Positions 4,295-25,863 are shown, numbered from the stretch's first letter. The stretch: DNA of 64,000 bases from Gammaproteobacteria bacterium (GCA_965243395.1 CBDEUS010000001.1:1056001-1120000); one strand, 5' to 3'. Numbers and translations: made by a program. Notes: generated by a model not told the origin, from the letters alone.

Positions 4295-4556
4295 AACCAA
4301 CTCCAAAATGTAGCAAGATCCTTCTTATCAAAAACTCACGTAGATTCAGCCACTAATATTTAATTTAGTGTGTCCACAACGTCCTTTATCAAATAGCCCT
4401 ATCTCCTTGATTTTTAAGGACTATACGGTATCGATTATTTCTCGATTAAATGAATCAAACCGCGACAGGCGCATCAACGGGTTAAAGAAACAGATAGAAG
4501 GTAAGGAGCTTTACCCTTTGAAATTAGATACGAGATTTAAGCAGGTTAAACGTGAA

Positions 4557-8014: not shown

Positions 8015-8043
8015 ATGTACGCTTATGGTCAATCGCAGCCATT
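8014..8043. repeat. Palindrome P1 (28-30-bp family, 12-nt spacer)
   Basis: AATGTACGC-TTATGGTCAATC-GCAGCCATT directly after the moaB stop; similar to P2-P4. Confidence 0.6.
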
Positions 8044-8227
8044 TTAAATTTTCACCATAGCTATGATTACAGTATGTTTCTCAGTAAGTTAAAAGCCACT
8101 TTGAATAAACTGCTCCCTTAGACAAACGATATATGGTAACGAATGAATAGGTTTAGTTTCACATCTATCCTTTAATAGTTACAAAATCTAATTAAAATAC
8201 GCAATCATCCTGTTGTATCTATATTGC

Positions 8228-8623
8228 ATGACACCAGAGAAGGACATCATTGCTGGTTGTATCGCAGCCATTGAAGCATTACAAACGGAAGGTTCAGCTT
8301 CCCTGAGCTTTAATCATATGCAAATTCTAATGCATATCTTTTTAAATGATGGAATTAGTAGAAAAGAATTAAGGGAACGTATCAAAAATTCCTCAAAAGA
8401 AGCAATTCAACGACATACGAAAGACTTACTATTTAAGCACAAATATATATCGGAAACTGAAAGCAAACAGGATTCTAGATATAAAGATCTTCATCTAACA
8501 GAAGAAGGTTATTCAGTAATCATCACCGTAGTCAAAAAAATGCAAGATTGTGCAACATGCTTGCAGCCCGACTACAATCCAAATGCTAGGTTAAACTTAT
8601 TTGCAGACGAAGAAATACATTAA
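8228..8623 (+). CDS. MarR-like winged-helix protein
   Basis: LSFNHMQIL..I...DGIS.KEL and D-S-R wing motif (QDSRYKDLHLTEEG); C-terminal CATC. ATG at 8228 preferred over TTG 8213. Confidence 0.7.
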   Translation: MTPEKDIIAGCIAAIEALQTEGSASLSFNHMQILMHIFLNDGISRKELRERIKNSSKEAIQRHTKDLLFKHKYISETESKQDSRYKDLHLTEEGYSVIITVVKKMQDCATCLQPDYNPNARLNLFADEEIH

Positions 8624-8686
8624 TCTAAGTCGTATTTCTCAAACAATCCAAAGAGGATAATTTTCTCTCAAATTTTTTTAAAAAGA

Positions 8687-8714
8687 GTTGCTGCTTTCGG
8701 CTAATAGCAGTCAT
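8687..8714. repeat. Palindrome P2
   Basis: GTTGCTGC-TTTCGGCTAATA-GCAGTCAT; overlaps the stop codon of the 8711-9166 gene. Confidence 0.6.
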
Positions 8715-9166
8715 AAAATCTCAAAGAAAATATGCCTTAGATAGATAATTGAATAAGGGATATCAAAAATAAATGAAAATAGCATTACAACAGTAATTAC
8801 GCCTGACCAGATTGAGAAAGCCGACAACTTCTTGGATAAGAACGGTCGTTTAGTTAGTAATAAATACAAAGATGGAGACCAGAAAATAACGTGGATTAAT
8901 GCGTTGAATCCCGCGAGCTTTAGCTGAACTAGACCAAATACAGATGAAAAAACCAAAGTCAAAAATCCTGCTATATAGCCACCAACTACCCAACGCGCAA
9001 TAGAATGTCGCTTAACAAAAAATATTCCGACTACAAAACAGGCTGTCGCTAACACTATCCAAATCATCACCCAAAGTGGTGTAGCTTCCATTCCTTGAGC
9101 ATCAAAAATTTCTAAAGCACGATAACCTTTTTGATAATCGATTGATTGTCCAAGTAGCTCAATCAT
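8711..9166 (-). CDS. Hypothetical membrane protein (about 4 TM)
   Basis: 151-aa ORF with several hydrophobic segments. Confidence 0.7.
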   Translation of the reverse strand: MIELLGQSIDYQKGYRALEIFDAQGMEATPLWVMIWIVLATACFVVGIFFVKRHSIARWVVGGYIAGFLTLVFSSVFGLVQLKLAGFNALIHVIFWSPSLYLLLTKRPFLSKKLSAFSIWSGVITVVMLFSFIFDIPYSIIYLRHIFFEIL

Positions 9167-9174
9167 TATTTTTG

Positions 9175-9240
9175 ATCACCTAACTTTAATCTGCTGCATC
9201 GTCCCTGATGGAAATCTTATTCGCACATCCATGTGCTCAC
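9175..9240 (-). repeat. Double-hairpin repeat R1
   Basis: Minus strand GTGAGCAC-ATGGAT-GTGCGAATAAGATTTCCATC-AGGGAC-GATGCAGCAGATTAAAGTTAGGTGAT; 53/66 identical to R2 without gaps; abuts the moaA stop. Confidence 0.8.
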
Positions 9241-10262
9241 TAACCGCCAATATATGACATCTCCACTTTTGGAAGCAAAACGGTTTCTGACGTTCTTAAT
9301 TCAGAGTAACGGTCATTTCGTTTTTTCCAAATAGCGCTAATCACTTCTTGGATATGATCTTCCTCTGCGCCTTCACGAAGGAGATGACGCAAATCTTTAC
9401 CTTGCGTAGCAAATAAGCAGGTATACAACTTTCCTTCTGCTGAAAGTCTTGCACGCGTGCAGGATTGGCAAAATGGTTGGGTCACGGATGAAATAATTCC
9501 AATTTCACCTCCACCATCTTTGTATTGCCAACGTTTGGCGACTTCTCCGTGGTAATTTGCTTCCGCAGGTTCGATAGGTAATTCCTGGTTTATTACATTA
9601 GAAATTTCTTTTGCCGAAAACACATCATCCATTTGCCATTGGTTGGTACTGCCGACATCCATGAATTCAATAAAGCGCAAGATAATTCCGCTGTTATGAA
9701 AATGTTTCGCCATTGGAAGAATAGAGTGTTCATTTACACCTTTTTTTACCACCATATTAATTTTAATGGGATCTAGACCTACAGTTTGCGCATGTTCAAT
9801 TGCAGTTAAAACTTTATCTACATCAAAAGCTACATCACTAATATTTTTAAATGTTTCATCATCTAGCGCATCTAGACTAATGGTTATGCGTTGCAACCCT
9901 GCACTTTTTAGTTGTTTAGCAACATCAGAAGTAAGCAATACACCATTTGTGGTTAAACTAATATCTTCAATACCATCAATCTTGGAAAGCTGTTGAATAA
10001 GGACAGGAAGATTTTTCCTTAATAAGGGTTCGCCACCTGTTAAACGTATTTTTTTCACGCCAAGTCGGGCGAATATTTTGGAGATTCTGGTAATTTCTTC
10101 AAAACTGAGTAAATCATCTCTGCGTAAAAACTCATATTCAGAATTAAAAACCTCTTTCGGCATACAATACGTGCAACGGAAGTTACAGCGATCCGTGACC
10201 GATATTCTTAGATCCCGAATAGGTCGTGATAAGGTGTCTTGAATTTGAGTATTTGTTTGCAT
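9240..10262 (-). CDS. moaA: GTP 3',8-cyclase (radical SAM)
   Basis: SVTDRCNFRCTYCMP, TGGEPLLR, FCQSCTRARL...C, C-terminal MSYIGG. Confidence 0.98.
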   Translation of the reverse strand: MQTNTQIQDTLSRPIRDLRISVTDRCNFRCTYCMPKEVFNSEYEFLRRDDLLSFEEITRISKIFARLGVKKIRLTGGEPLLRKNLPVLIQQLSKIDGIEDISLTTNGVLLTSDVAKQLKSAGLQRITISLDALDDETFKNISDVAFDVDKVLTAIEHAQTVGLDPIKINMVVKKGVNEHSILPMAKHFHNSGIILRFIEFMDVGSTNQWQMDDVFSAKEISNVINQELPIEPAEANYHGEVAKRWQYKDGGGEIGIISSVTQPFCQSCTRARLSAEGKLYTCLFATQGKDLRHLLREGAEEDHIQEVISAIWKKRNDRYSELRTSETVLLPKVEMSYIGG

Positions 10263-11867: not shown

Positions 11868-12746
11868 TTACTTAACTCCGTATTTTTCTGACTGCTTATA
11901 CTTATCCTCCACCCCAATCAAATCGTTAAATTCTTCAAAGTTTAATAAATTGCTCTCCATTCCAAGCGTAGTACCATCATTGTGTAACTTGGTATAAATA
12001 TCATTCATGATTTTACCTGCAGCGTACAAGCCTGTAAGAGGATAAAGAATTAGATGAAACCCCATAGCAGCGAGTTCATCTTTTTGTAGTACGGGTGTTT
12101 TTCCACCCTCTATCATATTTGCAACATTCGGATGTGGTGATTCCTGACCAATCCTTTTTAACTGCTCTAGTGAACCCGGCGCTTCTACAAAACTTGCATT
12201 TGCACCAATTTCACGTGCAGCCTTTACTCTTGCGATCGCTTCATCTAATCCTAAAACCGCTTCTGCATCGGTGCGTGCAACAATAAAAAAATCATTTTCT
12301 CCTCTTGCATCCACTGCAGCCTGGATTTTATATAAGTATTCATCACGTTCGATTACTTTTTTATTACGCATATGTCCACATTTTTTAGGCCAGACTTGAT
12401 CTTCCAAAAAGCAACCCTTTGCGCCAGCATCGATTAATTGCCTAACGGTTCGATGAACATTAAGTGGATTTCCATAGCCTGTATCAGCGTCCACGATAAT
12501 AGGCATGGAAACACTACTGCATATTGCGCGTGCACGATCCACCACTTCAGTTTGTGTAAGCAAACCAAAATCGGGTTCGCCTATGGTCGCGGCGGCTAAT
12601 GAATAACCCGAGATAAACCCCATTGGAAACCCGACTTGTTCAGCTATTTTTGCAGAAAGTGTGTCGTAGATTCCGGGGAATGCTAAAGACCCTACTTCAT
12701 CTAACACACTTTGAATACTACTATTTGGAACGTTTTTATTAGACAT
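11868..12746 (-). CDS. Isocitrate lyase/PEP mutase family enzyme (PrpB- or 2,3-dimethylmalate-lyase-like)
   Basis: IVDADTGYG, EDQVWPKKCGH, ARTDA, NMIEGGKTP. Confidence 0.9.
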   Translation of the reverse strand: MSNKNVPNSSIQSVLDEVGSLAFPGIYDTLSAKIAEQVGFPMGFISGYSLAAATIGEPDFGLLTQTEVVDRARAICSSVSMPIIVDADTGYGNPLNVHRTVRQLIDAGAKGCFLEDQVWPKKCGHMRNKKVIERDEYLYKIQAAVDARGENDFFIVARTDAEAVLGLDEAIARVKAAREIGANASFVEAPGSLEQLKRIGQESPHPNVANMIEGGKTPVLQKDELAAMGFHLILYPLTGLYAAGKIMNDIYTKLHNDGTTLGMESNLLNFEEFNDLIGVEDKYKQSEKYGVK

Positions 12747-12871: not shown

Positions 12872-13381
12872 ATGACCATGAAACCCATATTTTCAAATTT
12901 AAAGATTCGGTTATCTCTATTTATTGCAATATTGCTACTTTGCAGTATTTCAATAGCATCCGACTGGACAGAGGTAAGAACATTAGAAGGCAAATTTACA
13001 ACTTTATCCCAACACTTTGAAAAAGATAAATGGACACTTGTAATGCTGTGGACTATGGATTGTGGGATTTGCCAGCGTGAATACCCTATTATTTCAGAAT
13101 TTCATGACAAGCATAAAGACACTAAGGCAAAAGTAATCGGGGTATCTTTAGACGGTTATTCTAAACTGGATAAAATTACTGAACATATTGAAGAGATGCC
13201 CATGACTTTTGGTAATCTCATCGGCGAACTTACGGTTGTTGCGTTTAATTATCAAACTGCTACCGAAGAGACTCTTCGTGGAACTCCTACTTTTTTAATG
13301 TTCAACCCGGACGGTTACTTAGTTGGTCACAACCCAGGACCTGTTAAACCTGAAGCACTTGAAGCATTTATTTCGCGATAA
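12872..13381 (+). CDS. Exported TlpA/ResA-like thioredoxin
   Basis: Signal peptide, WTMDCGIC (CxxC), GTPT cis-Pro motif. Confidence 0.85.
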   Translation: MTMKPIFSNLKIRLSLFIAILLLCSISIASDWTEVRTLEGKFTTLSQHFEKDKWTLVMLWTMDCGICQREYPIISEFHDKHKDTKAKVIGVSLDGYSKLDKITEHIEEMPMTFGNLIGELTVVAFNYQTATEETLRGTPTFLMFNPDGYLVGHNPGPVKPEALEAFISR

Positions 13382-13786: not shown

Positions 13787-14689
13787 TTAAAATCTAGCAA
13801 ATGATAATTTCTTTCGCTGTGCAATCGCAATTCCAAGCAATATTATAATCAATGCAATTATCGCATTAACACCTATCTTTTCATTTAAAAACATAACGCC
13901 AATTATAACGGCCCAAACAGGTATCAAATAATTTATCTGCGATAAAAATGATGGTCCTACTCTGGCAATAACTGCAAAATAAATAATTGTGGCTAATGCA
14001 GTGGGGAAAATTCCTAATAACAACAGAGAAACAAATTCAATACTGTTCACAGAAAAGTCCCAATCAAAATTTGATAAAAATACTATTGGCAACATAAGTA
14101 CACTGGCAATCAACAGCACTGCACCGGACATTGCAACAAAACTTTCTTTCGGTAGTTTTTTGGCAATTATTGTATTAATTGCATAGCTAACAGCTCCCCC
14201 TAAAATCGCTATCATTGCAAGCAACCTGGCCATATCATTTTCAAAATTTGCTAGCGCACTTTCACCAAACAAAACAAGTATTCCAATAAACCCTAAAATA
14301 AACCCAATGACTTTATTCAGCGACAGTTTTTCTCCAGCGACGAAAAAGTGCGCTAAAACAATAGTCGTTAAAGGCATGACGGCCATTAGAATTCCTGCAA
14401 TGCTGCTATCTACTGTTTGCTGGCCCCAGCTAATAAGGTAAAAAGGCAGACAATTACCAAAAAAGGCTAACGCAACTAACAAACCGACGCGCCCTTTTAT
14501 AAATGCAAAAGAATCACGTCTTAAAATCGAAACTAAAACCAAAAAAATAGCAGCAATAGTAATTCTTCCTCCAGCAACAACAGCAGGCGGATACTCCTGT
14601 ACAGAAATTTTGATAAGCATGAAGGCACTTCCAAACATGATGACGAGAGCCGCCATACCGAGCCAGTCTAGCGGCTTTGCATTATACAT
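13787..14689 (-). CDS. DMT/EamA family transporter
   Basis: About 10 TM helices in two EamA-like halves (PFYLISWG, YLIPVWA..IG..FLNE). Confidence 0.9.
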   Translation of the reverse strand: MYNAKPLDWLGMAALVIMFGSAFMLIKISVQEYPPAVVAGGRITIAAIFLVLVSILRRDSFAFIKGRVGLLVALAFFGNCLPFYLISWGQQTVDSSIAGILMAVMPLTTIVLAHFFVAGEKLSLNKVIGFILGFIGILVLFGESALANFENDMARLLAMIAILGGAVSYAINTIIAKKLPKESFVAMSGAVLLIASVLMLPIVFLSNFDWDFSVNSIEFVSLLLLGIFPTALATIIYFAVIARVGPSFLSQINYLIPVWAVIIGVMFLNEKIGVNAIIALIIILLGIAIAQRKKLSFARF

Positions 14690-14728
14690 TGTAAATAAGA
14701 ATCCCTAGAGATTAATTAGAAAATGCCA

Positions 14729-16189
14729 TTAGTAGCGGATTAATACATCATAACTTAATGTAGTTTTTCCTTCAGCAGGAATTTTAATTCTCCACTCTGC
14801 AGTGCCTGCTGCTACTTTTTTATGTTTATGACTTTCTTGCTTCATTTTCCAATCACCAGGAATAGGTTCTTGAACTACTACTTCAATATCTTCGTCCTTA
14901 GCATTTTTAAGATCGATTTGGAAGCTCGCTGTATATGCGTAGTTATATTTCCCTATTGCATGGGCCTTCTTGAATTGAGTTTGTTTCTTGTCAGCCGTAA
15001 CATCAAATGCATCGCCCAGTTTTAACTTTACCTCTTCATTTTTAGGCGTATGATCAATATGGTCCTCACCTATAAATTGCGCATTGCCTGATTTATCGTT
15101 TTTATATACGCGCACAATACCTTTAGGTAAAGGAAGGCCTAGATTGGATTTTTTATCGTTTTTGAGCTCTACAAAAACCCCTACTTTCATTTTTTGACCA
15201 ATTGATCCATAAGAACTCTGATAGTAGTAATTTTGACCTTTAAGCAAAAATTCTTTTTTAACCGGAATTTTGGTCGCACTTAATAATGAAACTTGTTTTG
15301 TTTGATTTTCTTTTATAGTTGTCGGTCGTTGTAATGTATATAAGTGATATTCAAACAAAGCCTCTTCAACCATATCAGCTTCTGCAGCCACCGACTTTTG
15401 AGCAAGCATTTCAAATCTCCTTTTAGCTTCTCTAAAATCATCTTGAACTCGATTTACATCACCTGCGACCAATTGTAATTTGGCATTTTTGTATGTAGCA
15501 CCACTTTGATTATTTAACGTTACCCAGCCTGTCAGATCAATAAACTGATCTGATTCATCAAGCTCGGCTACATAATCAGCCTTCCAAGACAGTCCACCAG
15601 TTAAATAACTAAGCTGTAATTGTTGGGCTTTTGATGTTGCACTATTAAGTTCCATCACCAGTGTCGGACGGTCGCGTAAATTGCCTGGGACTTCGTCGAA
15701 TACAATGCGTCCTGGAACACCCGTCTCAATGCGGTCTCCGATTTTTAATACCACTCCATTATTTACACTCAATACAATAGCATCGAGTAATTTTTCTTTG
15801 CCAGTCGTGGGGTGTGTTTTAACAATCTTAACTTTCTTGCCGACATATTTTTCTAATAGTTTTTGAGGCGTTAACAAATCAAAATCGAAATTTTGCTCAA
15901 TTAAACGAAAACCATCTGAATAATTCAGACTGCGGAGTAAGGCAGTTTCAGGACGTATTTGAGCGCTTACCTCGCGAAATGCAAGTTTATTAAAACCACT
16001 ATCTAAGCGAATGGTGCGCACATCTTTTACCAGGGCTAGTTGATCGTTATAAATCGTAACCGCCACTTCGGTTTGATCCTGTAATGTACTTCGATATTCA
16101 GTTACATGAGTTTTAGCGCTCACCTGACCCAATATGAGGCTGAATAGAAAAGTAATAATGAATACAGACTTGGTTTTAGCTCGTTTCAT
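14729..16189 (-). CDS. Exported DUF4139 domain protein
   Basis: VTIYND.ALV, EQNFDFDLL, SYLTGGLSW.ADY, YHLY.L, IGED.IDHTP. Confidence 0.85.
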   Translation of the reverse strand: MKRAKTKSVFIITFLFSLILGQVSAKTHVTEYRSTLQDQTEVAVTIYNDQLALVKDVRTIRLDSGFNKLAFREVSAQIRPETALLRSLNYSDGFRLIEQNFDFDLLTPQKLLEKYVGKKVKIVKTHPTTGKEKLLDAIVLSVNNGVVLKIGDRIETGVPGRIVFDEVPGNLRDRPTLVMELNSATSKAQQLQLSYLTGGLSWKADYVAELDESDQFIDLTGWVTLNNQSGATYKNAKLQLVAGDVNRVQDDFREAKRRFEMLAQKSVAAEADMVEEALFEYHLYTLQRPTTIKENQTKQVSLLSATKIPVKKEFLLKGQNYYYQSSYGSIGQKMKVGVFVELKNDKKSNLGLPLPKGIVRVYKNDKSGNAQFIGEDHIDHTPKNEEVKLKLGDAFDVTADKKQTQFKKAHAIGKYNYAYTASFQIDLKNAKDEDIEVVVQEPIPGDWKMKQESHKHKKVAAGTAEWRIKIPAEGKTTLSYDVLIRY

Positions 16190-16344
16190 ATGTAATCCTT
16201 TATATTTAGTAGATTTACATACTTAAACGATAGAAATAGCCATATGGGTTAAAATAAGGCTAAATTATTTTACAGACACAAAACAACACACTAAATTTGA
16301 GTAACGGAACCTCTAATTATCTCTCTTGAGTATTTATCTTCTCT

Positions 16345-16824
16345 ATGAATCAAATCTTAATTATTGCTGGAATTGTAGGCATTTTGCTGTTCCTAAGATG
16401 GCTACGTAAACAACCAAAAAATAAGCAAATACAAGCCATTCTTATATTTGCGGCTATTGTATTGATCATAATGGCCGCCACAGGAAGACTACATTGGCTA
16501 TTTGCGATCATTGCAGCTGCTGTAGCAATGTTTCAGAAATTTGCAGGTCTATTGAGGTTTCTTCCTTTTCTACAAAGAATTTTTACAAGATCTCCTACTG
16601 AGAACTCCTCTTATGAAGCCAGCAATAGCCAAAATTCCAACATGACAATTGAGGAGGCATGCAAAGTATTAGGTATTGAAAAAGATGCTACTGAAGAAGA
16701 AATTATTGAAGCGCACCGAAAATTAATTCAAAAAATTCATCCTGATCGCGGCGGAAATGATTATCTCGCTACAAAAATTAATCAGGCAAAAGAGTTTATG
16801 CTTAAAAATTTACATAAAAGATGA
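16345..16824 (+). CDS. Membrane-anchored J-domain co-chaperone
   Basis: N-terminal TM helices; C-terminal J domain with HPD (KIHPDRGG). Confidence 0.9.
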   Translation: MNQILIIAGIVGILLFLRWLRKQPKNKQIQAILIFAAIVLIIMAATGRLHWLFAIIAAAVAMFQKFAGLLRFLPFLQRIFTRSPTENSSYEASNSQNSNMTIEEACKVLGIEKDATEEEIIEAHRKLIQKIHPDRGGNDYLATKINQAKEFMLKNLHKR

Positions 16825-16840
16825 AAGGAATATACTAATT

Positions 16841-19099
16841 ATGTTTTGGAAAAAACAATGGAAGAAACTCCAAAACAAAGATGGAAGTGAAGAATATGAA
16901 ATTCCTGCCTACAGTAAAGATGGCGGACATATTAAATCACTTGAAAGGCAAGGAGGTTTAACAACTAGCGCAACATATGGAGGAATGGGTGTTCGTGAAC
17001 TGCAATTGCGAATGGAGCTTATTGTTGAACCTATATTATCAAAGCAAAACAGTGTTTTTGAACCTGCAAAAGAACTCGCTGTATTCTCTAAAGTTGATCA
17101 AGATCGATTTTTACAGTCAGTCGAAAAAATATCTAAAACCGATACTGCTCTAGCTTTTAAGTTTTGCCATTTTGGGCCACTAAGCTTGCAATTAGTAGAC
17201 GAAGAAAATTGGAACGATTGGACAAGTGAAATCCTAACTGTTTATAACAAAGAAGGACTAGATTCAGCAATAAATACAATAAAGGATGTCAATCACTACA
17301 TTGAATCCTATACACATGCTCCTTCAAACGTTGCCTTAAATGAAGTTTCAAGAATTTTAGAAAGTTTCATTATTGGATTAAGCGGAAGACAACTATCTAT
17401 TGAAGCGAGCGAAAGTTTTTATACTGATACAGAATCAGTAAGACTGCCTGAAAACGTATCTCAATTTGATCGTCAAGAAGATAATTTTGCCTTATATAAA
17501 GCCATGGCGGTTCACCAATGGGCACAGACCTGGTTTGGTACTTGGAGAATGAATATAGATGCCATGGCTAAAACATATCAAGACCCAGATCGTGCACTGA
17601 AATTATTTCATAAGTTAGAAACTATAAGATTAGACGCTTGCATTAAACGCGAACTACCAGGTATTGCAAAAACCGTAAAAAATTTATTTGGAGAACTGGA
17701 TACAACAAAACTATCAAAAAAATGGCAGTTTGCTATCGAAAAAATGCGGGAAAGTGATACCACTGTAAGAGACACTTTTTTTCTCTTAGAAACAATCTAT
17801 AAAGAAAATGATTCACCTGAAGATAGGCCATACCAAGGTGAATTAAGGCCACGAGAAACCTGGAAAACAATTCAAGAAAGAACAGATAAAGAAAGAGAAT
17901 TATTTAAAGCTAAACTTGCAGAGCTAAAAAATGATCTACAGCAAAAATCATCTGAGGCTTCTATGAGTAATGATTCAGATGAAAATGATGATGGCTTCTC
18001 TATAGATGTAAATGAAAATGATTCCATGTCAGAGGGCTATAACATCGAACTACGCTTTGATGATGAAGCAGTTGAGCCTCCAGAAGAGTTGCAGGAGCTA
18101 TTAGAGTCAATTTTACAAGATCTAGGTGAAATTCCTGATGATTATTTATTACCTAGCACATATCAAACTGATGATATTGAAGATGAAAATGACGATCAGA
18201 ATTTATCCCCTTCATTAGACAATGAAGAAAATGTTTATATTTATGATGAATGGGATCATTCAAGGCAAAAATATAGAAAGGAATGGTGCTACTTAAAAGA
18301 ATTAGAAATTAAACCTGTTTATGACAATTTTGCTAACTCGACTATACATAAGCATCGAAACTTACTAAAACATTTACGTAGAACATTTGAAGCTCTGCGT
18401 GAAGACGATAAACGTCTAAAACGGCAACCATATGGAGATGACATAGATTTAGATGCTGTCATTGAGTCCTATACAGATATTAAAATAGGGCTCGAAGCCT
18501 CACAAAATCTTTTTACCAAATCCAGAAAGATCGATCGAAATATAGCGGTAATGTTTATGATTGATATGAGCGGATCAACTGCTGGTTGGATAAATGAAAT
18601 GGAACGCGAAGCTTTGGTTTTATTATGTGAGTCGCTGCAACTATTAGGCGATCGTTATGCAATCTATGGTTTTTCCGGTATTACGCATGAGCGTTGCGAG
18701 CTCTATGTCATTAAGGAGTTTGACGAAGGATATGATGACCAAGTTAAAGCGCGTATTAGCGGTATTCAACCACAAGACTATACTCGCATGGGCGCCGCTA
18801 TTCGGCATTTAACAAAAAAACTTCATCAAGTAGAAGCGCGCACGAAATTACTCATTACACTTTCTGATGGAAGACCCGATGACAAAGATGGGTATCGTGG
18901 ACCATATGGAATTGAAGACACAAGACGCGCCTTAATAGAAGCAAAATTTTTAGGTATACATCCTTTTTGCATAACGATAGATGAAGAAGCAATGGATTAT
19001 TTACAACATATGTATGGAGCAGTTAACTTTGCTGTAATTGATCATGTCGATAAATTGCCTTATAAAGTATCTGATATCTATCGACGTATCACAGTTTAA
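16841..19099 (+). CDS. CbbO/NorD-family VWA adaptor protein
   Basis: YDEWD...Y...WC, GDDIDLDA, MIDAS motif DMSGS, YTRMGAAIRH, LSDGRPDD. ATG at 16841 avoids overlap with the J-domain gene. Confidence 0.9.
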   Translation: MFWKKQWKKLQNKDGSEEYEIPAYSKDGGHIKSLERQGGLTTSATYGGMGVRELQLRMELIVEPILSKQNSVFEPAKELAVFSKVDQDRFLQSVEKISKTDTALAFKFCHFGPLSLQLVDEENWNDWTSEILTVYNKEGLDSAINTIKDVNHYIESYTHAPSNVALNEVSRILESFIIGLSGRQLSIEASESFYTDTESVRLPENVSQFDRQEDNFALYKAMAVHQWAQTWFGTWRMNIDAMAKTYQDPDRALKLFHKLETIRLDACIKRELPGIAKTVKNLFGELDTTKLSKKWQFAIEKMRESDTTVRDTFFLLETIYKENDSPEDRPYQGELRPRETWKTIQERTDKERELFKAKLAELKNDLQQKSSEASMSNDSDENDDGFSIDVNENDSMSEGYNIELRFDDEAVEPPEELQELLESILQDLGEIPDDYLLPSTYQTDDIEDENDDQNLSPSLDNEENVYIYDEWDHSRQKYRKEWCYLKELEIKPVYDNFANSTIHKHRNLLKHLRRTFEALREDDKRLKRQPYGDDIDLDAVIESYTDIKIGLEASQNLFTKSRKIDRNIAVMFMIDMSGSTAGWINEMEREALVLLCESLQLLGDRYAIYGFSGITHERCELYVIKEFDEGYDDQVKARISGIQPQDYTRMGAAIRHLTKKLHQVEARTKLLITLSDGRPDDKDGYRGPYGIEDTRRALIEAKFLGIHPFCITIDEEAMDYLQHMYGAVNFAVIDHVDKLPYKVSDIYRRITV

Positions 19100-19109
19100 C
19101 TAATTTAGT

Positions 19110-20270
19110 ATGCAAAACAGTAAACGGCTGGATGCTGTTCAAGCTCCTATTATTCCTTACATAGGTGAACTAAGCCGTAATAACCCGGGCACTATTTCGT
19201 TTGGACAAGGCATTGCGTTTTATGGCCCTCCCAAACAAGCATTTGAATATGTGCAAAAACACCTTGATGATGATTCGATTAACCGTTATGGGCCAGTTGA
19301 AGGCATTCCTGAGCTGCAACTAGCACTGATTAACAAATTAAGCTCTGTAAACAAAATAATTATTAACGATGACAATGCCGTTGTTGTTACCGCCGGATCA
19401 AATATGGCTTTTAATACCGCCATTCTTGCTATTACAGACCCTGGTGATGAGGTTATTTTAACTCTCCCTTATTATTTTAATCATGAAATGTCTTTAGTTA
19501 TGGAACGCTGCGTTCCGGTATTGATACCAAGCCAAGAAAATTTTCACCTAGACATTAATAAAATAGAAGCTGCTATAACTAAAAAAACAAAAGCCATTGT
19601 TACGATTAGTCCAAACAATCCAAGTGGGGCGGTCTACTCAAAAAAAGAATTAATTGAAATAAATACTTTGTGCAAACAACATGGTATTTATCATATTAAT
19701 GACGAAGCCTATGAAGATTTTTATTATGAGAGTTACCAACATTTTTCGCCCGCATCCATAGAAGATGCGCGCTCACATACCATTTCATTATTCTCATTTT
19801 CTAAAGGTTATGGTTTTGCCGGCTGGCGAATTGGTTATATGGTCATTCCTGTGACATTACTTGCTGCGGTTAAAAAAATTCAAGATACAATATTAATTTC
19901 GCCCCCTATTATCTCTCAATATGCCGCAATTGGTGCATTAAGCGCAGAGACATCTTTTCTCGAAGATAAACGCATCACCATGAATACAAAACGCGATTTA
20001 GTTATTAATAAATTAAGTAAATTAAAACATTTAAATAAACAACCCATTTCTGAAGGAGCTTTCTATACTCTCTTAAGTGTAGACTCTAATCAAAACGACA
20101 TGGCTCTAGCGGAACAATTAATTAAAAAATACAAAGTAGCTACTATTCCAGGCTCAGCATTTGGAATTGAATCGGGATGTTATTTGCGGTTGTCTTATGG
20201 CGCTCTATTAGATAATGAAATTAATGAAGGCCTCAATAGAATTATTCAAGGCCTAAACGAATTAATGTGA
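19110..20270 (+). CDS. PLP-dependent aminotransferase class I/II
   Basis: SPNNPSG, DEAY, SFSKGYGFAGWRIG (PLP lysine). Confidence 0.92.
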   Translation: MQNSKRLDAVQAPIIPYIGELSRNNPGTISFGQGIAFYGPPKQAFEYVQKHLDDDSINRYGPVEGIPELQLALINKLSSVNKIIINDDNAVVVTAGSNMAFNTAILAITDPGDEVILTLPYYFNHEMSLVMERCVPVLIPSQENFHLDINKIEAAITKKTKAIVTISPNNPSGAVYSKKELIEINTLCKQHGIYHINDEAYEDFYYESYQHFSPASIEDARSHTISLFSFSKGYGFAGWRIGYMVIPVTLLAAVKKIQDTILISPPIISQYAAIGALSAETSFLEDKRITMNTKRDLVINKLSKLKHLNKQPISEGAFYTLLSVDSNQNDMALAEQLIKKYKVATIPGSAFGIESGCYLRLSYGALLDNEINEGLNRIIQGLNELM

Positions 20271-20633
20271 TTCTGGCATAAGCGATGAATGATGATCTAT
20301 GATTTTAAATTCCCCATTATCTTGCTTATAAATCACAAACGAAAAGCGTGCAGGGCATTTTACTAACTCTTCACTTTGATAGGAAAATTCATACTCGCCA
20401 GAATAAATTGCAGCCTGACCAAAACTTCTTACATTAGTGGCGCCAAAATTCACCTTTAAATCTTGCATTAAAAACAAAGCTTCAAAATATTCATGAATCA
20501 ATTTATGGTTGTCACGTATAATTTCTGAAAAAGTTCCCCACAACACAGCATTCTCTGCATACAAATTTACAATACCATCCAGGTCGCAATTATTTAAACA
20601 AGCTTCCCATTTTCGGAGTATGTTCTCTGGCAT
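20262..20633 (-). CDS. NTF2/SnoaL-fold protein (COG4875-like, iota-carbonic-anhydrase-like)
   Basis: LY...AVL.GT.S, YF..L, SG.Y.F, ARFSFV, C-terminal IIDHHSSLMPE. Confidence 0.75.
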   Translation of the reverse strand: MPENILRKWEACLNNCDLDGIVNLYAENAVLWGTFSEIIRDNHKLIHEYFEALFLMQDLKVNFGATNVRSFGQAAIYSGEYEFSYQSEELVKCPARFSFVIYKQDNGEFKIIDHHSSLMPESH

Positions 20634-20641
20634 TGTTGAAA

Positions 20642-22132
20642 TTACCTGCCCTTAAATATCGAACCCATTATTCCACGAATAATGGATTGACCTAACCTTG
20701 AGGTTACAACTTTAGTTGCACTCTTAATTACAGTTTGTGTAGTTGTTTCACGTCTTGAACGCGATTTGCGTTTACTAGCAGAACGTTTAGGTTTATTTGC
20801 TTTATATTCTCTTTCTTTATCAATTTGTTTTTCTGCCTTTTCAGCGGCATCTTCTGTGCGTGCTCTCAATTTTTCAGCCGCACTTTCACGATCCACACGT
20901 TTATCGTAAACGTCTTTTATTGGACTCTTGTCAAATACTTCTTTGCGCTCAGGTTTGGTCGCGGGCCCCATACGAGATTCTGGGGGACGGATTTTTGTTT
21001 GCTGCACTATCGTAGGCACACCATCAGGGTCTAGAACCGATACCAAAGCCTCACCCACACCTAATTCAGTAATTACTTTTTCTGTATTTAAATCTGGGTT
21101 TTCTCTAAAAGTTGTTGCAGCCGCTTTAACAGCTTTTTTATCGCGTGGTGTATATGCACGCAAGGCGTGTTGAATTCGATTACCAAGTTGCCCTAACACT
21201 TCATCCGGAACATCAATAGGATTTTGGGTTACGAAATATACGCCGATACCTTTGGAGCGAATGAGCCTTACAACCTGCTCTACTTTCTGGATTAAAGCTT
21301 TTGGAGCATCGTTAAACAACAAATGAGCTTCATCAAAGAAAAACACCAATTTGGGTTTATCCGGATCACCCACTTCTGGGAGCTCTTCAAATAATTCTGA
21401 TAAAAGCCAAAGTAAGAATGTTGAATAGAGGCGTGGATTTTGCATCAATTCATCTGCTGCAAATAAATTGATGTATCCTTGACCTTCCTCCGTCGTACGC
21501 ATCAGGTCTTTTAGTTCCAATGCGGGCTCGCCAAAAAAATTCTTTGCGCCTTGCTGCTCGAGAACTAATAATCGTCTTTGTATGGCCCCTATCGATTGTT
21601 TACTGACATTACCGTAGTCCACAGTAAATGATGCTGCATTCTCACCAACGTGATTAAGAATAGCTCGTAAATCCTTGAAATCTAGTAGCAATAGCCCTTG
21701 ATCATCCGCTAATTTAAAAGCGATATTTAAAACGCCTTCTTGTGTGTCGTTTAAATCTAGCAGGCGCGACAGAAGCAATGGTCCCATTTCAGAAATTGTG
21801 GTGCGAACGGGATGACCTTGCTTGCCGAAAATATCCCAGAAGATGGTCGGAAACCCTCGAGGAGAATAACCTTCTACCCCCGTTTTAGACGCACGCTCTA
21901 CAAGTTTAGGTTTCTCTTCAATCGCTTGACTGATCCCACTTAAATCACCTTTTATATCGGCTGCAAATACTGGCACACCGGCTTGGGAAAAGCCTTCTGC
22001 CAGAATCTGTAAGGTAACGGTTTTACCTGTCCCGGTTGCACCCGCGATCAAGCCATGCCGGTTAGCACGCGAAAGAAAAAGACGCTGTACAGCATCGCTC
22101 TTTCCAACAACGATTGTATTTTCTGAAATCAA
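20642..22132 (-). CDS. DUF853 / YjgR HerA-like ATPase
   Basis: [15 protein letters not shown] (Walker A), FFDEAHLLF (Walker B), RSKG.GVYFVTQ. Confidence 0.93.
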
Positions 22133-22472: not shown

Positions 22473-24548
22473 TTGAAAAAACTATCACACAAATTGAAGT
22501 TTCTAAGCATTGTTGTAATTACTTTTTGTATCACCAGCAGTATAAGTTACAGCAATACAAACGATATCCTTGCGCCAGAGAAACAACATAATCGTGCAAC
22601 CAAACTTATTGCGCATTTTTTAGATAAGTATCACTACAAAGAATTTAATATTAACAACTCGCTTTCAAGCGAAATTCTTAATGCTTATCTTGAAGCTCTA
22701 GATCCTAATCGAAGCTACTTCTATCAAAAAGATATTAATAGTTTTCAAATTTTTCGATTCAAACTTGATGAAGCCATTACAAAACCCGAACTCAGCGCCC
22801 CATTTCAAATATTTCGCTTGTATCAAGCACGTGTTGAAGAACGTGTGTTATTTGCTCTAGAGCTCTTAGATACTAAATTTAATTTTAAAATTGATGAAGA
22901 GCTCAGATTTGACCGCATTGACTTACCTTGGGCAAAAAATAGTAATGAATTAAACGAAATATGGCGCAAACGCGTTAAAAATGATGTTCTCACTTTAAAA
23001 CTAGCAGACAAGAAGCCTGCAGAAATTAAAGAAACGTTAGAAAAACGTTATAACGGAATCGCAAAACGAAGTACTCAAGTAGATGCGGAAGACGTTTATC
23101 AACTATTTATTAATGCTTTTGCTAGCACCTTAGAACCACACACTAATTATTTATCGCCAAGAACATCTGAAAATTTCGAAATTCGCATGAGTCTTTCCCT
23201 AGAAGGAATTGGTGCACTATTACGAACAGATGGAGAATATACTGTAGTAGAAAAAGTAATTCCTGGTGGTCCAGCAGACTTAAGTGATTTACTTCATAGC
23301 TCGGATAGAATCGTTGGTATATCACAAGATGGTGATAAAGAATTTAAAGATGTAGTTGGCTGGCGATTAGAAGAAGTCGTAGCACTAATTCGTGGTGCAA
23401 AAGGTACTAAGGTAAATTTACAAATATTACCTGGTGACGAAGGTCAAGCCGCGAAAATAAAAGAAATTCAAATCACTCGCGATAAAATTAAATTAGAAGA
23501 ACAAGCTGCCAAAAGCGAAATCATTGAAATAGAGGAAGATTCTTTAAAGTATAGAATTGGCATTATAGATGTGCCAACTTTCTATATAGATTTTGCAGCT
23601 TATCAACGTGGTGATAAAGATTACCGTAGTACAACACGTGATGTAGATAATCTTATCACTGATCTTAAAGAACAAAAGATCGATTCACTTATACTTGATC
23701 TACGTGGTAACGGCGGCGGTTCACTTACTGAAGCGACTCAGCTGGCCGGATTATTCATTGATGAAGGACCTATTGTTCAAGTTCAGGATTCCAGTGGACA
23801 CATTGAAGTTCATCGTGATCGTGATTCAAAAATTTCTTATTACGGCCCTTTAGTTGTTTTAGTAGATCGATATAGCGCTTCAGCATCTGAAATTGTTGCT
23901 AGTGCCATTCAAGATTACCATCGAGGTATCGTCGTAGGTGAAACTACTTTTGGTAAAGGTACGGTACAGCAGTTAGTTGACTTAAATAACTTCAGCACCA
24001 GTGATGATGAAAAACTTGGCCAACTGAAAGCCACAATCGCTCAATACTTTCGAATTAACGGTAGCAGTACTCAACATAGTGGTGTTATTCCAGACATAGA
24101 CTTTCACACACTTTTTGAAGATGAAGAATATGGTGAACGTGCATTAAAAAACGCATTACCCACAAACACTATCACGCCTGTTAAACACCACTATGGCGAC
24201 ATAGACGAAAGAATCATTATACAAACTGCCGAGATGCACAGAAATAGAACTCACACAGATGAAAAATTTAATTCCCTTATCGAAATGTTTCAGCTTGATT
24301 ATGATGTAAGAAACCAGAAAACCATTTCTTTATTAGAGTCCACACGAAAAGCTGAATATCAACGCGTTGAATCAACCCGCTCAGAGTACGAGGCGTTGCT
24401 AAAAGACACTGAAGAAAACCTAAACAAACTGGATGACGACGAAGCGTTTATAGATGTGCTCTTAGACGAAACGGCACATATTGCAACCGATCTTGCCAAG
24501 CTATTAAAAGCACAAAACTCAAGTTCCTTTGTTTATAGAAATTATTAA
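22473..24548 (+). CDS. prc: Tail-specific (C-terminal processing) protease
   Basis: PDZ GIGA, DLRGNGGGSL, SASASEI, TFGKGTVQ. Confidence 0.95.
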   Translation: MKKLSHKLKFLSIVVITFCITSSISYSNTNDILAPEKQHNRATKLIAHFLDKYHYKEFNINNSLSSEILNAYLEALDPNRSYFYQKDINSFQIFRFKLDEAITKPELSAPFQIFRLYQARVEERVLFALELLDTKFNFKIDEELRFDRIDLPWAKNSNELNEIWRKRVKNDVLTLKLADKKPAEIKETLEKRYNGIAKRSTQVDAEDVYQLFINAFASTLEPHTNYLSPRTSENFEIRMSLSLEGIGALLRTDGEYTVVEKVIPGGPADLSDLLHSSDRIVGISQDGDKEFKDVVGWRLEEVVALIRGAKGTKVNLQILPGDEGQAAKIKEIQITRDKIKLEEQAAKSEIIEIEEDSLKYRIGIIDVPTFYIDFAAYQRGDKDYRSTTRDVDNLITDLKEQKIDSLILDLRGNGGGSLTEATQLAGLFIDEGPIVQVQDSSGHIEVHRDRDSKISYYGPLVVLVDRYSASASEIVASAIQDYHRGIVVGETTFGKGTVQQLVDLNNFSTSDDEKLGQLKATIAQYFRINGSSTQHSGVIPDIDFHTLFEDEEYGERALKNALPTNTITPVKHHYGDIDERIIIQTAEMHRNRTHTDEKFNSLIEMFQLDYDVRNQKTISLLESTRKAEYQRVESTRSEYEALLKDTEENLNKLDDDEAFIDVLLDETAHIATDLAKLLKAQNSSSFVYRNY

Positions 24549-24552
24549 ATGA

Positions 24553-24618
24553 GTGAGCGCAAGAATGCGCGAGTAAGAGTTGCATCTGGGATGATACAAG
24601 AGATTAAAGTTAGATGAT
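24553..24618 (+). repeat. Double-hairpin repeat R2
   Basis: GTGAGCGC-AAGAAT-GCGCGAGTAAGAGTTGCATC-TGGGAT-GATACAAGAGATTAAAGTTAGATGAT, 4 nt after the prc stop. Confidence 0.8.
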
Positions 24619-24624
24619 TTCCAT

Positions 24625-24652
24625 ATGACCGCTTTCGACTGATCGCGGTTAA
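24625..24652. repeat. Palindrome P3
   Basis: ATGACCGC-TTTCGACTGATC-GCGGTTAA; spacer resembles that of P2. Confidence 0.6.
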
Positions 24653-24777
24653 CCACGTGTTACATTTCACCGATGGGGCGTATAAATAATTGGTCCAAGT
24701 TATTTACTTATCTATTTAGAACCAACAATTTTAGCCGTTAAAGATAATTGATCAAATTTCAATTACTTTAGCTATAT

Positions 24778-25224
24778 ATGGATACTACGATACATCAGTT
24801 AGTCTACATCAGTGCTGCAAAGCACGAATTCTCAGAAGAAGAATTACAGGATTTATTAATTAAAGCGCGTACTAATAACCAAAAGCTTGGAATTTCTGGG
24901 ATGCTATTATTTCATCAAGGGTCATTCATTCAAGCCTTAGAAGGCCCCAAAGAAGATGTTGAAAGACTATATGAAAAGATAGGAGAAGATCGACGTCATA
25001 CTGAATCCAGAGTGTTATTTCGTGGCGACTTAGATGAACGAGATTTTGATGGTTGGTCTATGGGATTCTATCGATCAAATCAAAGTACCAAAGAGAACCT
25101 AGATGGATTTCATCGATTTTTAAAAACAGGTTTTCGTAGAGAAGTTAAAGAGGATGAAAGTCTTGCGCGTAAAGCACTTTTACAATTCAGAGAGGGAAAT
25201 TGGAGACAAAGTGTAGAAACATAG
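24778..25224 (+). CDS. Short BLUF-domain blue-light photoreceptor
   Basis: LVYIS (Tyr), RTNN, ISGMLL, FIQALEG (Gln), DRRH, F.GWSM (Trp-Met). Confidence 0.95.
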   Translation: MDTTIHQLVYISAAKHEFSEEELQDLLIKARTNNQKLGISGMLLFHQGSFIQALEGPKEDVERLYEKIGEDRRHTESRVLFRGDLDERDFDGWSMGFYRSNQSTKENLDGFHRFLKTGFRREVKEDESLARKALLQFREGNWRQSVET

Positions 25225-25227
25225 CTT

Positions 25228-25255
25228 AATGTCCGCTTTGGGTTGTGTATACATT
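25228..25255. repeat. Palindrome P4 (degenerate right arm)
   Basis: AATGTCCGC-TTTGGGTTGTGT-ATACATT, 3 nt after the BLUF stop. Confidence 0.5.
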
Positions 25256-25263
25256 TTAAGTAT

Positions 25264-25327
25264 ACCTGACTTTATATTGTTCACGTCATCCATGACGTGA
25301 CTCGTATTCGCACTTCCCTGTGCTCAC
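25264..25327 (-). repeat. Double-hairpin repeat R3
   Basis: Minus strand GTGAGCAC-AGGGAA-GTGCGAATACGAGTCACGTC-ATGGAT-GACGTGAACAATATAAAGTCAGGT; inverted relative to R2. Confidence 0.8.
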
Positions 25328-25500
25328 CACTTATCGTGAAAACTTACATCAATATTATTCATGTAAGACATAAGTAAAAAATTATCAGTCCAAGTGTCTG
25401 TAAATCCAAACCCTTTGGATAATATAGAGTATTAATGCTTAGCTTTTAATCACACCGGCCGCTTAAGATGTTAGCACCACTCTGTTAAAGGGAGTTAACA

Positions 25501-25863
25501 ATGTCAAAGGCTATAAGTGTCTTTTCAATTTTATTCTTCATTATTGCCATTCCTAACCAGGCTCTTTCAGAAGAACATCCTGAACTTAATAGATTTTGCA
25601 TGTGGAAAGCGAGCGCTGCGCAAGTAATTGCTATGAATCGTGATATTGGACTTGATGAGATAAAAATTACAGCACAATATCTTAAACAAGAAGCTGATTA
25701 TAATGAACAGTTAATTGTTCTGGGCTTAATCGACAGAATTTATGGTACTTATGAGTTTGTCACACATGACACAATATATTCACAAACTAAAAAAACTTGT
25801 TTGCGTGATTTTTATATTGACAAAACTCAAGAAGTCTTTTTATCGCAGAATACTGGCAAATAA
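25501..25863 (+). CDS. Hypothetical exported protein
   Basis: GGGAG RBS, signal peptide, two Cys. Confidence 0.7.
   Translation: MSKAISVFSILFFIIAIPNQALSEEHPELNRFCMWKASAAQVIAMNRDIGLDEIKITAQYLKQEADYNEQLIVLGLIDRIYGTYEFVTHDTIYSQTKKTCLRDFYIDKTQEVFLSQNTGK

Follow-up and report, generated by a model that had tools for sequence, protein, structure and literature searches.

Directly downstream of prc, which encodes a tail-specific protease, a 64,000-nt stretch of DNA from a Gammaproteobacteria bacterium (the window, meaning this whole stretch throughout) carries a gene for a short BLUF photoreceptor enclosed by two nested pairs of repeats. The outer repeat (R) and the inner palindrome (P) delimit a unit at positions 24553 to 25327, for which an original prediction had proposed a possibly undescribed, non-autonomous system that captures and moves single genes. 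Comparison with three relatives leads us, on balance and with modest confidence, to regard R and P as new repeat families akin to repetitive extragenic palindromic (REP) sequences and bacterial interspersed mosaic elements (BIMEs) that mark a plastic, recombination-prone slot downstream of prc. In this interpretation, R and P would be two separate families of structured intergenic repeats in an uncultured marine gammaproteobacterial lineage of low guanine-plus-cytosine (GC) content. The DNA just past prc would be a plastic slot with old repeat copies, R2 and R3, at its two edges, and changes in its content would result from recombination events at or close to the repeats, or from homologous exchange via the flanking conserved DNA, and not from transposition of the whole R-to-R unit. 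The repeats would mark, and perhaps promote, this recombination-prone slot, in which BLUF would be an ordinary resident.

The relatives (L001, L002, and L003) are loci from metagenome-assembled gammaproteobacterial genomes that were retrieved with prc as the query; their prc proteins are 93%, 86%, and 82% identical to that of the window. For L001, we examined 22 kb around prc. Repeat searches covered the window and the three loci (64 kb plus 58 kb, 121,819 nt in total), and protein domains were sought with Pfam in 65 open reading frames (ORFs) of the window and in 18 ORFs of L002 and L003.

Anatomy of the BLUF locus

The order prc, R2 (plus strand), P3, BLUF, decayed P4, R3 (minus strand) was confirmed in the window (Table 1), and with it the predicted layout of inward-facing R copies and inner palindromes around BLUF, starting directly after the prc stop codon (24546-24548). 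R had been placed within about 10 nt of its palindrome; the gaps are 3 nt between R2 and P3 and 1 nt between P4 and R3. The conserved GTGAGC of R2 begins at 24553, and R3 closes with GCTCAC, the last base of which is 25327. R2 and R3 are inverted copies of one element, as predicted, but this element is about 72 nt long and the two copies are only 59% identical (43/73). Both inner palindromes are likewise present, but P4 is decayed, and the strong palindrome CACGTCATCCATGACGTG at 25283-25300 is hairpin 2 of R3 and no separate site. BLUF is the sole ORF of at least 50 amino acids (aa) inside the unit, which, as had been noted, encodes no transposase.

The BLUF protein matches its Pfam family over residues 6-96 with 108.9 bits, against a curated cut-off of 25. 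A protein search returned 121 homologs, nearly all of 145-170 aa, and the best relatives of solved structure are Tll0078 (TePixD, 1x0p) and Slr1694 (PixD, 2hfn), matched over residues 5-102 (E 1.4e-16). The Tyr, Gln, and Trp-Ser-Met positions align (LVYIS, FIQALEG, and GWSM in the query; LIYLS, FLQTLEG, and NWSM in Tll0078), and we take Tyr, Gln, and Trp/Met to be the flavin-pocket residues that matter in BLUF. This single-domain protein is like the short BLUF proteins Tll0078 and Slr1694 in its aligned flavin-site positions and differs from them in that neither an output domain nor an obvious partner gene for BLUF was found within the slot. It is apparently an ordinary, intact short-BLUF gene that occupies the slot in this genome.

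TABLE 1 Features of the window and their coordinates
Feature	Position	Strand	Description
P copy	8015..8042	+	Directly after MoCF_biosynth (moaB-like) gene; 30.8 bits (training sequence)
Two small genes within molybdenum-cofactor cluster	8213..9166	.	136-aa SarA/MarR-like (+), 151-aa membrane protein (-)
P copy	8687..8714	+	At stop of 151-aa membrane-protein gene; 22.7 bits, E 1.9e-4 (not training sequence)
R1, solo R copy	9172..9243	-	Between moaA stop and 151-aa membrane-protein gene; 88.2 bits
prc (tail-specific protease), left flank of slot	22473..24548	+	Pfam TSP_NTD, PDZ, Peptidase_S41, DUF3340
R2	24550..24621	+	Hairpin 1 GCGCA/TGCGC, hairpin 2 CATC/GATG, AGATTAAAGTTAG tail; 86.1 bits (training sequence)
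P3	24625..24652	+	Type a loop, partly decayed (5/9 stem pairs); 29.8 bits (training sequence)
Short BLUF photoreceptor gene	24778..25224	+	148 aa, apparently intact; Pfam PF04940, E 1.4e-31
P4	25229..25256	+	Type b loop, decayed; 22.8 bits, E 1.7e-4 (training sequence)
R3, inverted R copy	25258..25330	-	Outer 25 nt identical to L001, inner 48 nt 54% identical
Highly conserved non-coding block	25306..25500	.	Outer R3 and region upstream of 120-aa ORF; 180/195 (92%) vs L001
120-aa ORF, right flank of slot, conserved	25501..25863	+	Signal-peptide-like N-terminus; 88% identical in L001

Contents of the slot in relatives

Gene order upstream of prc is retained in all four genomes. L001 also shares the genes of the window from the 120-aa ORF onward (a protein for which a search found 39 homologs and to which no Pfam family matched); the interval from prc to this ORF differs. 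In L001, an R copy follows prc at the same position as R2 (12074-12145, 68% identical to R2), and an inverted R copy precedes the 120-aa ORF (13120-13191). These edge copies score 80.2 and 85.7 bits, both being training sequences of the R model. The 975 nt between them, with 29% GC, hold short minus-strand ORFs, one P copy, and one decayed P, and no blastn or tblastx similarity joins the slot interiors of the window and L001 save P-like fragments. A tblastn search (E ≤ 10) found nothing credible as BLUF or a BLUF remnant in the three relatives' loci. The original prediction had envisaged alternative cargo downstream of prc, and L001 supplies it: the window and L001 have alternative contents, without mobility genes, between the conserved prc and 120-aa ORF. 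With both R copies retained around other cargo, L001 offers no empty site, and the ends did not move along with BLUF.

Within the L001 slot, at 12179-12494, two minus-strand ORFs of 63 and 56 aa overlap and look like parts of a single small secreted protein in which the motif G-[IV]-T-x-Y-[TS]-D recurs; either a frameshift or an assembly error would have divided it.

In L002 and L003, synteny stops at the prc stop codon. There, prc is followed in L002 by a weak R (26.2 bits, E 0.0033) and P and then by an array described below, and in L003 by P and then by unrelated genes.

A BLUF ortholog (P0001, 91% identical) comes from a contig of 385,492 nt, exactly the size of the L001 contig, and all five L001 proteins found by exact look-up are also reported from a 385,492-nt contig. 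Since these contigs match and BLUF lies outside the 22 kb examined, we conclude that the L001 genome does carry BLUF, at a distance of over 10 kb from prc. BLUF and prc are therefore not in stable synteny, a finding that leaves standing this much of the original prediction.

As an indirect proxy for synteny, we compared contig sizes between lists of protein matches, in which each cluster at 90% identity is represented by its longest contig; this is no synteny map, and matches between short sizes can arise by chance. No contig size is common to the 120 listed BLUF clusters and the best 120 prc clusters (among the first 45 prc clusters, of at least 80% identity, 30 are on contigs of at least 10 kb). 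The list for the 120-aa ORF (39 entries) shares four sizes with the prc list (63609, 20569, 69945, and 91255), and a MazG-like cluster shares three (96141, 28581, and 218093). Because none of these seven sizes occurs among the listed BLUF clusters, the comparison suggests a frequent linkage of prc to the right-hand genes in which BLUF has no part. The BLUF list and that of the 120-aa ORF have two small sizes in common, 929 and 1533 nt, compared with about 0.3 expected by chance according to our own estimate, and BLUF may adjoin the 120-aa ORF in more distant relatives (BLUF 76% and 66% identical).

Boundaries and age of the slot

Between the window and L001, identity at fourfold-degenerate sites is 55-58% in four of five flanking genes and 67% in the fifth, the MazG-like gene; for three ordinary intergenic regions it is 77-86%. 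The conserved block before the 120-aa ORF, which consists of the outer 25 nt of R3 and the following 170 nt, stands at 92%. Since outer R3 belongs to this block and inner R3 is 54% identical to L001 (26/48), the right-hand limit of homology separates the two hairpins of R3, and on the left the variable segment starts at R2 or shortly past it. Fourfold identity at this level marks old lineages, and for this reason the retained R copies are long-lived and not recent insertions. R2 and R3 are thus old and positionally conserved, without travel alongside BLUF.

The conserved block holds two hairpins, at 25343-25367 and, as CCAAACCCTTTGG, near 25405. A promoter-like minus-strand site (25449-25421) is located upstream of R3, and comparison by eye shows no change there in L001. 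The block had no Rfam match and may be a putative regulatory RNA or leader.

Two separable repeat families

R, which has three copies in the window, consists of two small hairpins and a conserved AGATTAAAGTTAGG tail. With at most two mismatches, a degenerate 27-nt R pattern matches at 9214-9240 (-), 24553-24579 (+), and 25301-25327 (-); 0.01 matches are expected in the window, and three were reached in 0 of 100 shuffles. R1 and R2 match at 81% over 67 nt and are identical at 55 of 72 positions (76%). The Shine-Dalgarno-like motif AGGTGA of the next gene is part of the R1 tail, and at four of the six known R copies a gene on the same strand (moaA, or prc in the window, L001, and L002) lies directly upstream.

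The R model was built from five of the six copies. When all six are aligned to it, 83.3% of the pair cells form standard pairs, compared with 3-42% when partners are slid, and double-sided changes that preserve pairing occur in both hairpins (4 of 11 pairs, 7 cells), counts that lean towards structure because the six sequences were aligned to a model built from five of them. In folds of single sequences against shuffles, R1 (z = +0.64) and R2 (z = -1.04) have no extra stability, and only R3 stands out (z = -3.52). Rfam returned no family at gathering thresholds across the whole window. The candidates near R2/R3 and R1 at E ≤ 10 (snR71 snoRNA, Yfr10, AsxR, and rliA) were implausible, fell far under the thresholds, and were rejected.

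A family separate from R, P is a REP-like palindrome of 28 nt in which a 9-bp stem encloses a 10-nt loop. It was found by searching for a 9-nt half-site, after which a model was made from 30 aligned copies (mean column identity, 83%). Sub-types a and b, seen in L002, are defined by the loops TTCGGCCAAT and TTGGGTCGTT. P4 keeps the left arm and the loop; its right arm is lost or replaced, so that the hairpin no longer forms. The L002 copies score 36-45 bits on the better strand, except for the copy at 13947 (33.5). There are four P copies in the window, all intergenic, one good copy in L001, two and a weak one (E about 0.08) in L003, and 25 within 9 kb in L002.

P follows the R tail within 1-7 nt at four of the six R copies. 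P also occurs without R, as in the 25 L002 copies, which have a single weak R among them, and in the window copies at 8015 and 8687, and R occurs without an adjoining P, as in R1 and the L001 counterpart of R2; R and P are therefore separable. This largely independent distribution tells against the nested capture unit originally proposed.

Where the repeats sit

No R or P match at E ≤ 0.01 falls in the syntenic blocks of the four genomes, that is, about 10 kb upstream of prc in all four and the block past the slot that the window and L001 share. Their positions are restricted to the slot, the non-syntenic DNA past prc, and one further locus of the window (8015-9243). Of about 64 intergenic gaps in the window, 5 hold its seven copies, which bracket three small genes; three adjacent gap pairs among them have a probability of about 0.0008 in a simple random-placement simulation.

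The locus at 8015-9243 is a second repeat-bounded islet, in which two P copies (8015 and 8687) and R1 (9172-9243) bracket two small genes and which interrupts a molybdenum-cofactor cluster (moeA, moaE, moaB-like ... moaA). No Pfam family matched the 151-aa membrane protein encoded there.

In L002, positions 13947-20833 hold 11 P(b)-linker-P(a) doublets of 87-111 nt, with linkers of 31-55 nt. They separate unrelated, tightly packed small ORFs (Rieske, M23 peptidase, membrane proteins, and a glutamate-synthase fragment) that are co-stranded except for the first, and in most cases stops are 5-27 nt and starts 14-44 nt from the repeats. Homologs of the array ORFs were not found in the other loci save a weak M23 paralog. 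Three doublets were folded as single-stranded DNA: one gave a long P(a)-P(b) hairpin, and two gave separate small hairpins. The attC sites of integrons have core motifs, and paired motifs of this kind were not evident by eye in the doublets. No match of the Phage_integrase type occurs in the window or in the downstream ORFs of L002 and L003, the L002 array running off the contig end. The array has the appearance of a series of cassettes, integron-like or rich in REPINs (doublets of inverted REPs), without an integrase in view.

Among other candidate explanations, we rejected a remnant of an integration site at a tRNA or tmRNA gene (there are no such genes in the window), a sigma-70-type promoter as the source of the hairpins (3 promoter-like sites, all on the minus strand, vs 4.7 expected), and an intrinsic terminator as their source (0 terminator-like sites). 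R as a dif-like site or a site like that of integration host factor (IHF) was considered by eye only and dropped.

Elsewhere in the window, a 978-aa ORF at 1373-4306 has a match to the hydrazine-synthase alpha middle domain (PF18582, E 1.7e-19), which is unusual for a gammaproteobacterium, and a PD40 repeat.

Weighing the explanations

An R pair kept around different contents, a homology boundary within R3, repeats found in variable DNA and clustered in few intergenic gaps, paired changes in both R hairpins, the separability of R and P, and the lack of a mobility gene among the ORFs searched are what the interpretation as REP/BIME-like repeats at a plastic slot draws on. From these we infer that recombination at the repeats may cause the turnover and that selection may keep R. 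Several observations weigh against this interpretation. Scattered REPs would bracket accessory-looking genes less tightly than these repeats do, and the L002 array resembles scattered REPs less than it does a cassette array. Identity is higher between R1 and R2, within one genome (76%), than between R2 and its counterpart in L001 (68%; window 24553-24579 and L001 12077-12100), which hints at some turnover or conversion among R copies. The fitted alignment biases the structure counts for R towards pairing. The 929- and 1533-nt contig sizes are a weak hint that the link of BLUF to the right-hand gene is old.

We consider it unlikely that R is instead an element of transcripts (a stabiliser in the 3' untranslated region or between cistrons, a processing site, or part of a small RNA) that is under selection, in which case the symmetry around BLUF would be incidental and the variability of the slot unrelated to the repeats. 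The position of four of six R copies directly downstream of a gene on the same strand would fit, as would the Shine-Dalgarno-like motif in the R1 tail, the compensatory changes in both hairpins, the survival of R while neutral divergence is near saturation, and the promoter-like minus-strand site upstream of R3, which is unchanged in L001. However, no Rfam family reaches its gathering threshold, R1 and R2 fold no more stably than shuffles, R3 alone doing so, and this explanation does not account for why every R and P sits in variable DNA, bracketing small genes.

Distinctly less plausible to us is a cassette system in which P, with or without R, is a recombination site and an enzyme encoded elsewhere shuffles single small genes, in the manner of integron attC sites or of Xer-dependent dif modules. 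L002 would be the array form and the BLUF slot a one-cassette outpost. We hold equally doubtful a variant in which the system is an undescribed one of a small-genome, uncultured marine lineage, with R as an accessory module, sites of a different kind, and an as yet undescribed enzyme. The 11 doublets between unrelated small ORFs, co-stranded except for the first and close to stops and starts, point in this direction, as do the pairing of P(a) with P(b) as one long hairpin in one of three folded doublets, the differing cargo at the same slot with BLUF elsewhere in L001, and the type a P to the left and type b P to the right of BLUF, which is the plus-strand order found around the L002 ORFs. Yet, with respect to the P frame, BLUF and the L002 ORFs point in opposite directions, and the slot boundaries in the window and L001 are asymmetric and lie at or in R, not at P. 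P3 (29.8 bits) and P4 (22.8 bits, its hairpin lost) are decayed, which is unexpected of active sites. No integrase or recombinase domain occurs in the window or the loci, attC core motifs were not evident, and two of three folded doublets give separate small hairpins. Moreover, REPINs, too, are inverted REP doublets of about 100 nt (PMC3337134).

A composite element resembling a miniature inverted-repeat transposable element (MITE) or a mobile insertion cassette (MIC), with R2 and R3 as terminal inverted repeats and a mobile 775-bp BLUF unit served by a transposase in trans, would suit the inverted R at both ends, the sub-terminal palindromes, the lack of a transposase inside, and the other position of BLUF in L001, but we find it very improbable given that the R ends are 59% identical with no direct repeat abutting them, that both R copies are in place at this site in L001 around other cargo, that orthologous sequence (92%) runs without a break through the outer 25 nt of R3 and its flank, and that neither a second unit in the 121,819 nt nor a match in a plasmid or phage record was found. 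The last two results come from a search for a second inverted R pair or copy of the unit and from blastn (E ≤ 0.01) of a 784-nt unit against plasmid and phage collections, with zero matches in both. A target-site duplication was not found with either choice of ends, the flanks being unlike in AATTATTAAA|R2 ... R3|TTATCGTGAA and in ...AATGA|GTGAGC ... GCTCAC|CACTT. Because both R copies stay while the content differs, the predicted movement of the R-to-R unit gains no support.

Comparison with known systems

REPINs are described in PMC3337134 and PMC3116915 as pairs of inverted REPs moved by REP-associated tyrosine transposases (RAYTs). Like a REP, P is a short extragenic imperfect palindrome, and its inverted doublets in L002, at about 100 nt, have a REPIN's size and layout, whereas no doublet occurs at the BLUF locus, where single P copies adjoin R. 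No RAYT gene, and no transposase or recombinase domain of any kind, was found among the 65 ORFs of the window and the 18 of L002 and L003. The BIMEs of E. coli are mosaics comparable to REP-type repeats, and R beside P resembles the extra motifs that accompany REPs. The copies here also resemble REPs and BIMEs in being long-lived and, apparently, vertically kept. In contrast to REPs, R is a two-hairpin element of 72 nt, and both repeats are found here in variable DNA only, where they bracket single small genes.

The behaviour of the slot is best matched by the minimal mobile elements of Neisseria, which are alternative contents between conserved genes, exchanged via transformation and recombination in the flanks. 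The prc and 120-aa ORF flanks, the alternative contents, and the lack of mobility genes all correspond; the structured repeats at both edges are extra here. The term "minimal mobile elements" appears in PMC3082526 and PMC1538595.

MICs are described in PMC3913671 and PMC5444012 as single genes between inverted repeats without a transposase, with the qnrD and qnrS2 cassettes as examples. The BLUF unit, one passenger gene between inverted repeats with no transposase, is similar, and MICs are thus a known form of what the original prediction proposed. MIC ends, however, derive from insertion sequences and move with their cargo, whereas here the ends stay and the cargo differs, the ends being 59% identical and without a target duplication.

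attC-site clusters devoid of an integron integrase (CALINs) are common, according to passages of PMC4889954. L002 is similar in its co-oriented, packed, unrelated small ORFs, its alike palindromic sites of about 100 nt, and the lack of an integrase nearby. It differs in that each half-site is itself a palindrome and attC core motifs were not evident by eye, and the BLUF locus differs as a single gene with decayed sites. The dif modules of Acinetobacter plasmids are, in PMC6449649 and PMC13141974, gene modules between inverted 28-nt Xer sites with no recombinase of their own. P is also 28 nt, a comparison of length only, and the slot is chromosomal, whereas dif modules are on plasmids. Unlike the 11-6-11 layout of dif sites, the palindromic part of P is its outer 9 nt around a 10-nt centre.

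Since MICs, dif modules, and integron cassettes or CALINs are already in print, transposase-less single-gene units with inverted sites are no new idea, and calling the system "undescribed" was too strong; the kind of site could be new.

Implications

If R and P are ordinary REP/BIME-like repeats, the outcome is two new intergenic repeat families and a hot spot of gene turnover past prc, which is of value for annotation and unsurprising. If the repeats are recombination sites, they would give small-genome marine bacteria a new route for shuffling single accessory genes, here a light sensor, with neither integron integrase sites nor transposases, and the L002 array would be the place to study the system. 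Were the genes indeed carried as cassettes, this would explain why BLUF is at different places in two close relatives.

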